Positions 1 to 26,922 of a stretch of 64,000 bases of DNA are shown here, piece by piece. How positions within the stretch are numbered: the stretch's first letter is position 1; the number at the start of each line of letters is the position of its first letter. Location of the stretch: NCBI RefSeq assembly GCF_055900595.2, contig NZ_CM148325.1. The stretch is one strand, 5' to 3'. Under the pieces are notes generated by a model that was given only the letters and a program-made list of their open reading frames with translations, was not told where the DNA came from and searched no databases. Both the position numbers and the translations under genes were made by a program.

Positions 1-183
1 CTCCATTCTCGAAAAATTCATACTCTCAGCGAAACCATCATCAATCACTCATCCAGGCGTTTATGGGAGCGTCGCCAATGGCTGCTAACAATGCCAGACT
101 TCCCCGTTGCCGAAATTCCACATACCACAAATGGTCACAGGGATTGGGTGTTGAAATGATCCGGATGAGCATGTATCTTTATA

Positions 184-201
184 GTTATGTTATAACATAA
201 C
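184..201. promoter_or_regulatory. Zur-box-like perfect palindrome GTTATGTTATAACATAAC upstream of ykgM
   Basis: 18-bp perfect inverted repeat 12 bp upstream of the ykgM start; ykgM-ykgO is a known Zur-repressed operon. Confidence 0.6.
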
Positions 202-212
202 AGGTAAAAATG

Positions 213-476
213 ATGAAACCCAATATCCATCCTGAGTATCGTACTGTGGTGTTCCATGACACCAGTGTTGATGAGTACTTTAAAATCGGCTCGACTATCA
301 AAACAGACCGTGAGATTGAGCTGGATGGCGTAACGTATCCGTACGTGACAATTGATGTCTCTTCGAAATCGCACCCGTTCTATACAGGGAAGCTGAGAAC
401 AGTGGCATCAGAAGGAAATGTTGCACGGTTCACCCAACGTTTTGGTCGTTTTGTTAGCACGAAAAAGGGGGCGTGA
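213..476 (+). CDS. ykgM: 50S ribosomal protein L31 type B (zinc-independent paralog)
   Basis: 87-aa translation [16 protein letters not shown]... matches YkgM/RpmE2; second in-frame ATG chosen. Confidence 0.9.
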
Positions 477-616
477 TGAAAGTCCTTAACTCTCTGCGTA
501 CCGCAAAAGAACGCCATCCAGACTGTCAGATTGTGAAGCGAAAAGGACGGCTGTATGTGATTTGTAAATCTAATCCACGTTTTAAGGCCGTTCAGGGGCG
601 TAAGAAAAAGCGTTGA
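476..616 (+). CDS. ykgO: 50S ribosomal protein L36 paralog
   Basis: 46-aa [34 protein letters not shown]..., ATGA overlap with ykgM stop. Confidence 0.85.
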
Positions 617-1832: not shown

Positions 1833-1949
1833 TGGAGCACCTCAAAAACACCATCATACACTAAATCAGTAAGTTGGCAGCATCACCAAAACCTGCAAAA
1901 ACTCTTAGATCTTTTACAGAGCGAAGATGGATTCAGTAGCAATAAGAAG

Positions 1950-4949
1950 TTGATTGGCAAATTTCGTTTGTTACCGAAAAAATTAACCACAAAGAAAAAA
2001 CATGAATCCCAAAATGGACACGTCCACTTTTCTAATCCTAAACGAGCAGCCGACCATTTATTTAATAATTTTGATCTGATACCAGAGTTTCGTATTATTG
2101 GTGACTTCCCGGTTGATAGTCACATTATCTCTGCACTATGGATTAACATGGTCGGGCATAAATTTGATGCCAGCTTAGATAACTGTTGCTATGGCGCGCG
2201 GCTAAAGCGTATTCGTAATGATGAATTATTTAGCAATGAGCAGGATAATCCATTCCATATCAGTGCAGTGGGTTCTTTTAGCCCCTACTTCCAGCCCTAC
2301 CAAAAATGGCGTGGTGATGGCTTAAAAGCTATACGTGACGAGTTGGAAAAAGATCGTGACATTATCGCCGCCTCACTGGATTTAAAAAGTTACTATCATT
2401 TTATTGATCCACTGGCTATAACCTCTGATGATCTCTATAACACACTAAACATAAAACTGACTGAGGATGAAAAAGCGTTTACTGCACAGTTAGCAGTATT
2501 CTTAAAGCACTGGTCTGACGGCGCAGCGGCATTTGGAAAGAAAATAGCGTACAAAACACCTGTTATTAATGGTGGTCTGGTCATTGGATTAACAGCCAGT
2601 CGGATCATTTCAAATATATTGCTACACCATTGGGATAAATTAGTCATTGAAAAACTATCACCAATTCACTACGGTCGTTATGTCGATGATATGTTCCTTG
2701 TAATACGCGATACAGGGAAAATTACTAATAATCACGAATTTATGTTATTGCTGCAAGATAGGCTTGGCAATGATTGCGTTTATTTGAAAAACGAGCAAAA
2801 ACAAATATGGCAAATACAGCAGGGCGAGCATTTCCAGGGTAAGACCACCATCCAGTTACAATCCGATAAGCAAAAACTTTTCGTGCTTCAAGGGAGGGCT
2901 GGAATAGACCTGCTCGACAGTATCGAAAAGGAGATCTACGAGCTTTCTAGTGAACACCGCTTGATGCCTTCACCGGATCAACTGGAACACTCAACCGCAG
3001 CTAAAGTCCTTTCCGCTGCCGGTAGTGTAGGTGAAAATGCCGATACTCTGCGCCGTGCAGATGGATTAACCATTCGTCGTTTGGGCTGGTCACTGCAATT
3101 ACGCTACGTTGAAACACTGGCACGAGATCTGCCTCCAAGTGAATGGAAAGAACAGCGGGAAGAGTTTTATCAGTTTGCCTACAACCATATTCTTAGGGCT
3201 GATAATCTATTTGCACATTTTAGTTATCTGCCAAGGCTGCTTGGCTTTGCTATCAGTATGAATGAATGGCAGCACGCGGAAACAATTGTACTTAAAGCTT
3301 ACGAATCCATCAACCTGTTGGCATCGGTGATTACTTCAGGTAAGGAAGTGAATATAAATGGTTGCAAAACTCGAGCAGTAAATGATCTTTGGCGCTGTAT
3401 AAAAGGCACATTAAGCTGGCTATTTGTTGATGCAGCGACACGATATTACAGTCCTGACAGATTATTTCTTGATAAACGTTCAAAGAAAGAAGAGTGCCTT
3501 GCGGATACATTTTTTAATCATATTTCACAAAGTCTGACGAATCTAAAGGATTTACTGGATCTTCGCTTTGATTCAGCAGATTTTTATTTAAAAGCGCCAT
3601 TGGTAGCTCGAGCTGATTTAGCAAAGGAACCTTATAAACAGATCGTAAAGAGTCAGTCGGCAGAAAAACTTGTTAATCAGCGTGATAGTAAAAAAGAAGT
3701 TAAAATACTGAAATTAATGAGCGACTCATCGCTTATTGATATTGACGTTATTAAGCTATTTTTGAAATCAACCAAGAATACCCGACTGGAAAAAGTGGCT
3801 AAAGGAAATCGTAAGAACGAAAGTTACCTACCTTACATTTTCCCTACACGTCCTTTAACACCCGCTGAAATATCAGAACTGGCCCCCGAATGTGTTGGAT
3901 TACCCTCCACATCCGACAAAAAACCAGATGAGAGACCGTCCACCATTTGGGCAAAATATACTCAAGCATTACGCGGAGTATGGATCAAACCGACGTTGCT
4001 AGCATCGGAGCAGGACTCAGATGAAGCGACAAAAAAAGCTCGGCCTAAGAAATTCATTCATATTGGCACAGACAGGAAACATAAAGTTGTCGTTGCGCTA
4101 ACCAGCATTAAAACAGAGGAGGACGACTGGGCTAAAATGGCCTGCAATAAATCTAACTTGTCCCGTTCAAGGTACCAGCGGATTTCTGAACTGGTTAATG
4201 CAACATTGAAACTATCTCCTAAACCTGATTATGTTTTATTCCCTGAGCTTTCAATCCCGTTACGCTGGGTTAACAGTATTGCTGATCGTTTGAGTTCGGC
4301 GGGTATCAGTCTAATTGCGGGAACAGAATACCGCCACTTAGACGATAATCAACTGAAGAGTGAGGCCGTACTTGTCCTTTCAGATAACAGACTCGGCTAT
4401 CCAGCGAGTGTCAAAATATGGCAACCCAAGCTGGAACCCGCCGTAGGTGAAGATGAGGCATTATTTTCAACTTATGGTAAGTCTTGGGACTCGACACTTA
4501 ATGTTAAACAACGTAAGCCGGTATATATTCATCATGGCGTCAATTTTGGCGTTATGATTTGCTCTGAACTCCAGAATAGTAAAGCGAGGATCCGTTTTCA
4601 GGGCGCACTCGATGCATTAATGGTATTGAGCTGGAATAAAGATCTAGATACGTTTGCATCGTTGATTGAATCAGCAGCGCTGGATATTCATGCCTATACT
4701 ATTTTAGTGAATAACCGAAAATACGGCGATAGTCGCGTACGTTCCCCGGCAAAAGAACCCTTTATGCGTGATATTGCTCGTGTGAAGGGCGGTGATAATG
4801 ACTTTGTGGTCGCTGCAACGCTGGATATCGACTCGTTAAGGGCATTTCAGAGCAGGGCAAAACGCTGGCCTAAAGGCGGCGATAAATTCAAACCGTTACC
4901 TGAAGGATTCCAGTTGGCAAAGAACCGCAAAAAGCTACCGCCAAAATAA
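1950..4949 (+). CDS. Reverse transcriptase fused to C-terminal nitrilase/C-N hydrolase domain (DRT type 1 / UG1-like); 5' end probably truncated by IS1
   Basis: RT motif A ASLDLKSYYHFID and motif C RYVDDMFLV; C-terminal FPELS...GVMICSELQ (Glu and Cys of nitrilase triad); first start is TTG and frame stays open back to IS1 edge. Confidence 0.7.
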   Translation: MIGKFRLLPKKLTTKKKHESQNGHVHFSNPKRAADHLFNNFDLIPEFRIIGDFPVDSHIISALWINMVGHKFDASLDNCCYGARLKRIRNDELFSNEQDNPFHISAVGSFSPYFQPYQKWRGDGLKAIRDELEKDRDIIAASLDLKSYYHFIDPLAITSDDLYNTLNIKLTEDEKAFTAQLAVFLKHWSDGAAAFGKKIAYKTPVINGGLVIGLTASRIISNILLHHWDKLVIEKLSPIHYGRYVDDMFLVIRDTGKITNNHEFMLLLQDRLGNDCVYLKNEQKQIWQIQQGEHFQGKTTIQLQSDKQKLFVLQGRAGIDLLDSIEKEIYELSSEHRLMPSPDQLEHSTAAKVLSAAGSVGENADTLRRADGLTIRRLGWSLQLRYVETLARDLPPSEWKEQREEFYQFAYNHILRADNLFAHFSYLPRLLGFAISMNEWQHAETIVLKAYESINLLASVITSGKEVNINGCKTRAVNDLWRCIKGTLSWLFVDAATRYYSPDRLFLDKRSKKEECLADTFFNHISQSLTNLKDLLDLRFDSADFYLKAPLVARADLAKEPYKQIVKSQSAEKLVNQRDSKKEVKILKLMSDSSLIDIDVIKLFLKSTKNTRLEKVAKGNRKNESYLPYIFPTRPLTPAEISELAPECVGLPSTSDKKPDERPSTIWAKYTQALRGVWIKPTLLASEQDSDEATKKARPKKFIHIGTDRKHKVVVALTSIKTEEDDWAKMACNKSNLSRSRYQRISELVNATLKLSPKPDYVLFPELSIPLRWVNSIADRLSSAGISLIAGTEYRHLDDNQLKSEAVLVLSDNRLGYPASVKIWQPKLEPAVGEDEALFSTYGKSWDSTLNVKQRKPVYIHHGVNFGVMICSELQNSKARIRFQGALDALMVLSWNKDLDTFASLIESAALDIHAYTILVNNRKYGDSRVRSPAKEPFMRDIARVKGGDNDFVVAATLDIDSLRAFQSRAKRWPKGGDKFKPLPEGFQLAKNRKKLPPK

Positions 4950-23565: not shown

Positions 23566-24391
23566 GGACCGCCTCCAGACGCTTGGCGAGCCAGCGTTGC
23601 GACAGGCGGGTGAGTTCTCCTTTACGCTGCTCATATTCCATGCCCATATCAATTAACGTGATATTGGTGCTTTCGAGATATGAGAGGTGCTCAAGCTGTT
23701 CTGCGTTCATATGGTCGCGAGGTTCGCCAGAATAGCCATTTATCCGCGCCCACTGTTTAGCAGTTAGCCCACCAAGAACGATACGAGAAATCATATTGCT
23801 CTCGTTTGTGTAGTGGTGTTGCTGCGTCGTTTTACCCATCTCGGCACGGGCCATATTCAGCGCATCGCACATTGGCTTAAAGTTGTTTGCGGCACTGATA
23901 CGGGCTTTTAGCTGGCGACGATAGCGGGCGGCGATTTCAGGCACGCTACGCTGTAATTCTTCCTCGCACTGGATGAAATAACGGCGGATAGCGCGCCCCT
24001 GATCATTGCGTTCGATCATTGCCAGTTCTTTCGCCATTCCGACACTTAACAGATAGTCTTTGCCGGGTCTGCCAGACTGCTTAATCTTGCTGTAAGCCGC
24101 GTCATTCGGGCTTTTCCCCAAATTTGGGGAAATTGTTTTATGGACTGAGTAATCGTGCCCAATGGTGAAGTCATATTCAGAGATGCGATCAGTGATCCAT
24201 GTAGAGAAGTCTTTTCCCACGCCCAACGCTTTGTGTAACGCTTTTGCGCTAACAATATTGGTTTCACGCCCACCGATATGACCAGGAATAACCGGGACAA
24301 TTGCGGCAAATTCATTACCGTTAATTGTGCCCAGAGAGGCGTTCAGATGAGGGGCAGCCTCAGAAATTAATCTGCTTTTTTCGATGTTCAT
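23558..24391 (-). CDS. Phage antirepressor-like protein
   Basis: 277 aa; KALHKALGVGKDFSTWITDRI...LLSVGMAKELAMIERNDQGRAIRRYFIQCEE resembles AntA/KilAC-type antirepressors. Confidence 0.5.
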   Translation of the reverse strand: MNIEKSRLISEAAPHLNASLGTINGNEFAAIVPVIPGHIGGRETNIVSAKALHKALGVGKDFSTWITDRISEYDFTIGHDYSVHKTISPNLGKSPNDAAYSKIKQSGRPGKDYLLSVGMAKELAMIERNDQGRAIRRYFIQCEEELQRSVPEIAARYRRQLKARISAANNFKPMCDALNMARAEMGKTTQQHHYTNESNMISRIVLGGLTAKQWARINGYSGEPRDHMNAEQLEHLSYLESTNITLIDMGMEYEQRKGELTRLSQRWLAKRLEAVHV

Positions 24392-26846: not shown

Positions 26847-26922
26847 TGGTGCCGATAATAGGAGTCGAACCTACGACCTTCGCATTACGAATGCGCTGCT
26901 CTACCAACTGAGCTATATCGGC
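26847..26922 (-). tRNA. thrW: tRNA-Thr (anticodon CGU)
   Basis: Reverse complement GCCGATATAGCTCAGTTGGTAGAGCAGCGCATTCGTAATGCG...TATCGGCACCA; anticodon loop TTCGTAA. Confidence 0.9.

Follow-up and report, generated by a model that had tools for sequence, protein, structure and literature searches.

The ykgM-ykgO gene pair of this Escherichia coli strain is preceded by a perfect palindrome and followed, at a short distance, by an IS1 element, which raises the question whether the palindrome is the Zur operator of a zinc-sparing operon and whether that operon is still intact. We addressed this question within a window of 64,000 nucleotides, by which we mean the whole stretch of DNA that was analysed. 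The sequence at positions 184-201 is the already known and well-studied Zur operator of ykgMO and constitutes neither a new member nor a variant; that zinc-loaded Zur shuts off ykgM-ykgO from this site is very probable on the evidence given below.

The palindrome and the genes behind it

The 18-mer GTTATGTTATAACATAAC at 184-201 is its own reverse complement with 9 of 9 matching pairs, whereby the arms GTTATGTTA and TAACATAAC meet between positions 192 and 193, and 183/202 is the first pair to break the symmetry. An earlier note, made from the letters alone, had reported a perfect 18-bp palindrome 12 bp upstream of the ykgM start codon, and both parts of this description were reproduced: the A of the annotated ATG at 213 follows base 201 at a distance of 12 nt, with 11 bases in between. 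The start at ATG213 was taken from the RefSeq annotation of the identical sequence in near-identical genomes; an in-frame alternative ATG is present at 210, 8 nt from the palindrome. We annotated 184-201, with no strand assigned, as the core of the Zur operator on the basis of the palindrome, its identity to the K-12 sequence, the match to a published probe, and its conservation.

The gene that follows, ykgM (213-476, plus strand), encodes an 87-aa type B (zinc-free) ribosomal protein L31 (NCBIfam NF002462, 122.9 bits against a cut-off of 86), and ykgO (476-616, plus strand), whose start overlaps the ykgM stop codon, encodes a 46-aa type B ribosomal protein L36 (NCBIfam NF002021, 91 bits against a cut-off of 70). 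YkgM contains no cysteine and YkgO contains two, and both proteins are identical to those of K-12. The reading of the pair as an operon of a zinc-independent L31 paralog and its partner is thus borne out by the NCBIfam assignments, type B L31 followed by type B L36. Positions 1-1100 of the window are matched in 5063 of 5426 complete E. coli genomes, with ykgM, ykgO, and a convergent ykgL as annotated genes. The zur gene itself is not located within the 64-kb window; it is present in 5425 of the 5426 complete E. coli genomes.

The stretch directly behind the ykgO stop codon holds two inverted repeats, one at 644-662 (GTCTGATTA-A-TAATCAGAC) and one at 667-701 (perfect 14-nt arms ATTAATGTTGGTGT/ACACCAACATTAAT around a loop of 7 nt); both are situated in the 3' end of ykgL, which is convergent and frameshifted. 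These repeats could act as the terminator of the operon; a terminator scan found none at 644-701, and no T-run follows either repeat.

Taken by itself, the palindrome is statistically unremarkable, because 51 of 200 first-order Markov simulations of 64 kb with the same composition contained a perfect palindrome of at least 18 bp. An unrelated perfect palindrome of 20 bp (TTTCCCCAAATTTGGGGAAA), which is longer than the one at 184-201, is found at 24113-24132. A functionless chance palindrome would be in keeping with both of these facts, the first amounting to about one in four simulated windows, and its probability, which we regard as negligibly small, is weighed below together with the conservation data. 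Applied to a given 60-bp upstream region, the simulation rate would correspond to about 3 in 10,000. It is therefore position, motif match, and conservation that carry the case for an operator. Within the 64-kb window, a search for the 18-mer that tolerated up to 3 mismatches gave one occurrence, where 0.04 are expected, and a search that tolerated up to 2 mismatches to the published 20-mer pattern for Zur likewise gave one (0.13 expected); at these thresholds the window holds no second Zur-box-like site.

Identity to the K-12 operator and fit to Zur motifs

The 18-mer is identical in E. coli K-12 MG1655, ST131, ETEC6334, a second E. coli, and E. albertii, whereby bases 177-183 differ among them. 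The comparison with K-12 could be made directly on the DNA used for binding studies: the gel-shift probe Cy5-L31P (Cy5-L31P-r) as given by Gilston et al. (2014, PLoS Biol, PMC4219657) in their supplement matches window positions 168-215 at 47 of its 48 native bases, and the sole difference is position 183, just outside the palindrome, which is A in this strain and G in K-12. In that work, L31p is the tightest among the four Zur operators of E. coli, with a Kd-app of 0.025e-18 M2, and also the most palindromic of the four; in vivo repression at L31p is 560-fold, and Zur protects about 30 bp at PL31p (PMC4219657). In a separate and independent study with a ykgM-lacZ reporter (Aseev et al., 2020, PMC7297116), derepression reached about 1000-fold when zur was mutated or when the zinc chelator TPEN was present. 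Zur binding, the 560- to 1000-fold repression, and the induction by zinc chelation are thus taken from the K-12 literature. Beyond the operator, this strain also resembles K-12 PL31p in the −35 and −10 candidates, the Shine-Dalgarno sequence, and the proteins. It differs from it in A183 and in an IS1 together with a 20.4-kb deletion, which begin 503 nt downstream of ykgO.

The Zur motif derived in the same study is the 18-bp RxxxYRxxR*YxxYRxxxY, to which two Zur dimers bind cooperatively, each reading RNNNYxxxRNNNY (PMC4219657). All 8 specified positions of the corresponding purine/pyrimidine skeleton RNNNYRNNRYNNYRNNNY (structure-based Zur box) fit the site, which scores 18/18 on the skeleton; this bare R/Y skeleton has no discriminating power, with 290 matches in the window against 274 expected. 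The IUPAC two-dimer pattern TGWNAYRWTATAWYRTNWCA scores 19/20 at 183-202, and the K-12 L31p operator reaches the same score. The palindrome can be read as two identical, overlapping GTTAT-N3-ATAAC elements with an offset of 5 bp, and the direct repeats GTTATGTTAT and ATAACATAAC within it arise because of this offset. Fitted to the one-dimer element of PMC4219657, the first element (184-196, no strand assigned) would be the site of Zur dimer 1 and the second (189-201, likewise unstranded), read with the same model, that of dimer 2. The operators of E. coli zinT, znuABC, and pliG share the RNNNYRNNRYNNYRNNNY skeleton, the central TATA, and the two Zur dimers (PMC4219657). All three fall short of the symmetry of the ykgM site (5 palindromic pairs of 9 for zinT and pliG, against 9 of 9), and the operators of znuC and pliG bind Zur more weakly (PMC4219657). 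Moreover, zinT, znuABC, and pliG are zinc-uptake, periplasmic zinc-trafficking, or lysozyme-inhibitor genes and not ribosomal paralogs.

The fit to older motif descriptions is less uniform. With the consensuses of Panina et al. (2003) that are cited in PMC2706843, the ykgM site has the TGTTATAACA core in common; its agreement with the 18-bp form of the Rhodobacter group, GATATGTTATAACATATC, extends to 16 of 18 positions. For the other forms quoted there, the score is 15/19 for the gamma-proteobacterial 19-mer AATGTTATAWTATAACATT and 17/23 for the 23-mer, and the E. coli ykgM site has even symmetry (9-0-9), whereas the quoted gamma-proteobacterial consensus is odd (9-1-9). The best 19-mer score of 15/19 is reached at 181-199 or 186-204, and no match to the literal 19-mer AATGTTATAWTATAACATT was obtained with up to 3 mismatches in the window. 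The comparison with the Zur consensus that the earlier note had proposed as a check therefore came out in two ways: the structure-based box (8/8) and the IUPAC pattern (19/20) agree with the site, but the gamma-proteobacterial 19-mer does so only at 15/19. This poor 19-mer match bears on the question of which motif description fits and not on whether Zur binds. The Zur-operator reading itself was upheld by the identity of the 18-mer to the K-12 operator, the probe match, and the IUPAC score. A comparable situation is found in Yersinia pestis, where the orthologous ykgM-rpmJ2 operon is also repressed by Zur (Li et al., 2009, BMC Microbiol, PMC2706843), and where the Zur box, defined by a DNase I footprint, overlaps the −10 element (PMC2706843). 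The Y. pestis box GATGTTACATTATAACATA aligns to window positions 181-199 and is identical in its right-hand 10 bases; unlike the E. coli site, it is a 19-bp 9-1-9 element at −34 to −16 from the start codon and not a perfect 9-0-9 palindrome.

A different regulator, for instance Fur or another Fur-family protein acting on AT-rich inverted repeats, is highly improbable as the one that uses this site. What speaks for such a regulator is that every Fur-family box is an AT-rich palindrome of comparable length: a Fur box is an AT-rich inverted repeat of about 19 bp at a promoter, bound by a dimeric or two-dimer Fur-family repressor. The sequence of the Fur box differs from that of the ykgM site, however, and the best match to the 19-bp Fur box GATAATGATAATCATTATC within positions 151-250 is 13/19 and lies off the site, at 209-227; thus, a Fur box was rejected. 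Furthermore, the 18-mer is identical to that in the probe that binds Zur at very low apparent Kd (PMC4219657), and ykgM is derepressed in zur mutants (PMC7297116), both of which argue for Zur.

Conservation, promoter context, and proposed mode of repression

For the comparison across species, one genome per species was scanned, which gave 313 stretches encoding YkgM relatives, and the best 80 were kept. Together with the present site, these 80 other species, mostly Enterobacterales, make up 81 sites with 80 distinct sequences, which were aligned with the operator site as anchor and evaluated as bits of information per column. Each of the best 80 of the 313 stretches carries a site with 0-4 mismatches to the 18-mer, located 10-26 nt and mostly 12-14 nt before the start codon. 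In this set (best 80 of 313 plus this site), the 18 operator columns hold 1.59 bits per column, compared to 0.31 in the 60 columns upstream and 0.34 in the 12 columns downstream. The first 13 columns (GTTATGTTATAAC, 184-196) are the most conserved with 1.78 bits per column, and the right-hand end at 198-201 is the least conserved part of the operator (0.83-1.33 bits). Positions 180-183 in front of the site are T-rich and fairly conserved (0.9-1.4 bits). The functionless chance palindrome introduced above is refuted by this conservation: among the best 80 of the 313 stretches, 80 other species have the sequence in the same place ahead of ykgM, with flanks that are randomised. In addition, divergent E. 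coli that vary in the adjacent bases carry the 18-mer unchanged, and it is identical to an experimentally characterised operator.

The spacer between the predicted −10 element and the operator, at 177-183, is the most variable stretch among the E. coli strains, next to the invariant 18-mer. Its alleles at 177-183 are TTTATA in this strain, TTTATG in K-12, TTTACG in ST131, and CTTGCT in ETEC6334.

The pattern of changes within the arms also bears on a reading in which the palindrome works as a nucleic-acid structure, either as a hairpin in the ykgM 5' leader or as a DNA cruciform, for which the chance is very remote. The RNA could form a 7-bp stem with a 4-nt loop, but its predicted stability is low (−6.2 kcal/mol, z = −1.1) and is reached by 30 of 200 shuffled sequences. 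Among the 81 orthologous sites, the arms have changed on one side about 130 times and in a compensatory manner 3 times; for example, A187 is invariant, and its partner at 198 is changed in 29 sites. Since the changes are one-sided and almost never compensatory, it is the sequence that is conserved and not the pairing. This is in line with a site bound by a protein and speaks against a cruciform or an RNA structure. A transcription start within the left arm, as predicted below, would furthermore truncate the stem, and Rfam gave no match in 1-1200 at E values up to 1. An RNA hairpin was thus rejected on account of its weak, non-significant fold, the lack of covariation, and the lack of an Rfam match. 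The protein-binding reading, i.e., a Zur operator, can be specified further by its symmetry: over the 81 sites, the 9-0-9 register yields 7.38 of 9 pairs, compared to 6.25 of 9 for the 9-1-9 register centred on 190. The even two-dimer model hence describes the sampled ykgM operators, which are mostly from Enterobacterales, slightly better than the classical 9-1-9 consensus does.

A consensus scan of the plus strand yielded one sigma-70-like promoter, TTGAAA-17 nt-TATCTT, which ends 4 nt before the palindrome. The predicted −35 hexamer TTGAAA is located at 151-156 and the predicted −10 hexamer TATCTT, after the 17-nt spacer, at 174-179 (both plus strand). In the relatives (best 80 of the 313 stretches), the corresponding positions show a conserved TTG, with up to 1.6 bits, and a conserved TAnnnT, again with a spacer of 17 nt. 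From these promoter positions we infer a transcription start at about 185-188, which would fall inside the left arm of the operator; an experimental transcription start for E. coli ykgM was not found in the literature searched. A Shine-Dalgarno-like AGGTA lies at 202-206 on the plus strand, 6 nt before ATG213, and was read from the sequence; a purine-rich, GAGG-like block is conserved in the relatives. If the footprint size of PMC4219657 is centred on 192/193, the Zur footprint of about 30 bp would approximately cover 178-207 (no strand assigned), which takes in the conserved columns 180-183 and would reach from the 3' edge of the −10 element to about the Shine-Dalgarno sequence.

On these predicted positions, repression may be pictured as follows. 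Two Zur dimers would occupy the overlapping GTTAT-N3-ATAAC elements at 184-196 and 189-201, and bound Zn-Zur would exclude RNA polymerase or block open-complex formation, because the predicted transcription start is covered by the site, which starts 4 nt after the predicted −10 element; RNA polymerase is described as occluded in this way at the Y. pestis orthologue, where the Zur site overlaps the −10 element (PMC2706843). Under zinc shortage, Zur would lose its zinc and release the DNA, so that the operon would be transcribed. The cysteine-poor L31B and L36B would then replace the zinc-binding L31 and L36 in ribosomes.

The operon next to an IS1-associated deletion

The IS1 that had been noticed about 500 bp downstream does lie at this distance: it is 768 bp long, occupies 1120-1887 on the minus strand outside the operon, and, lying beyond ykgO and the remnant of the convergent ykgL, is separated by 503 nt from the ykgO stop codon, which ends at 616. 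Its boundaries are based on junction alignments with NZ_CP098223.1, the InsA/InsB ORFs, and the length and terminal sequences of the element. No 9-bp target-site duplication flanks this IS1, with ACCGAACAG on the left (junction 1119/1120) and AAAACCTGC on the right (junction 1887/1888). In the sister strain NZ_CP098223.1, which is the closest complete genome, the two junctions lie 20,360 bp apart. From the missing duplication and this gap it follows that the present strain has undergone an IS1-associated deletion; the genes lost include ecpR-ecpABCD(E) and an AbiEi/AbiEii toxin-antitoxin pair.

The IS1 event also took the first 148 bp of a gene for a 1069-aa protein, of which a remnant is left within 1888-4949, with an ORF at 1950-4949 on the plus strand. 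The full gene (L086:2853-6062) gave no Pfam match; PADLOC identified it as RT_UG5-nitrilase (E = 0, 1030 bits), a fusion of a defence-associated reverse transcriptase (DRT) with a nitrilase domain. This defence gene is probably inactivated in the present strain. Further downstream, about 20 kb at ~6000-26922, between an integrase-fragment region and tRNA-Thr(CGT) at 26847-26922, are absent from the sister strain, where the tRNA-Thr directly follows the integrase fragment. This segment encodes P22-like ejection proteins (gp7, an injectosome translocase, and an SLT-domain protein) as well as a DUF927/Toprim primase and a SocA/Panacea-domain protein, and looks like a prophage or satellite remnant at thrW.

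It is conceivable, albeit quite unlikely, that the operator is intact and the zinc control of ykgMO is nevertheless quantitatively altered in this strain, either via A183 or by antisense read-through from IS1 through ykgL. A183 is the only strain-specific feature of the operator region in comparison to the K-12 probe and represents a minority allele, since an exact match (at least 99% identity) to the 48-mer of this strain occurs in only 23 of 4728 records, and most records carry the K-12-like G. In the same direction, insA/insB of the IS1 are encoded on the minus strand and point towards ykgO, and 20.4 kb of sequence have been replaced by the element. Position 183, however, is outside the 18 contact-skeleton positions and varies naturally between A, G, and T in those E. 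coli and relatives in which the operator is retained, and between ykgO and IS1 there are the hairpins at 644-662 and 667-701 plus 500 nt of sequence, both of which speak against such an effect. If the zinc switch were altered, this would make it a natural variant of Zur-ykgMO regulation.

The standard Zur control of an intact operon is the reading that we prefer, and none of the observations speaks against it. The claim that the operon is intact was confirmed, as the predicted promoter, the operator, and both genes are unchanged and IS1 touches neither the promoter nor the coding regions; the deletion ended short of ykgMO. From the identity to K-12 and the prevalence of zur, we infer with good reason that ykgMO is regulated by zinc and Zur in this strain as well. 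The finding is correct but ordinary and matters little beyond correct annotation: as far as can be judged from its unchanged operator, predicted promoter, and two genes, this E. coli strain would keep the standard zinc-sparing ribosomal switch.
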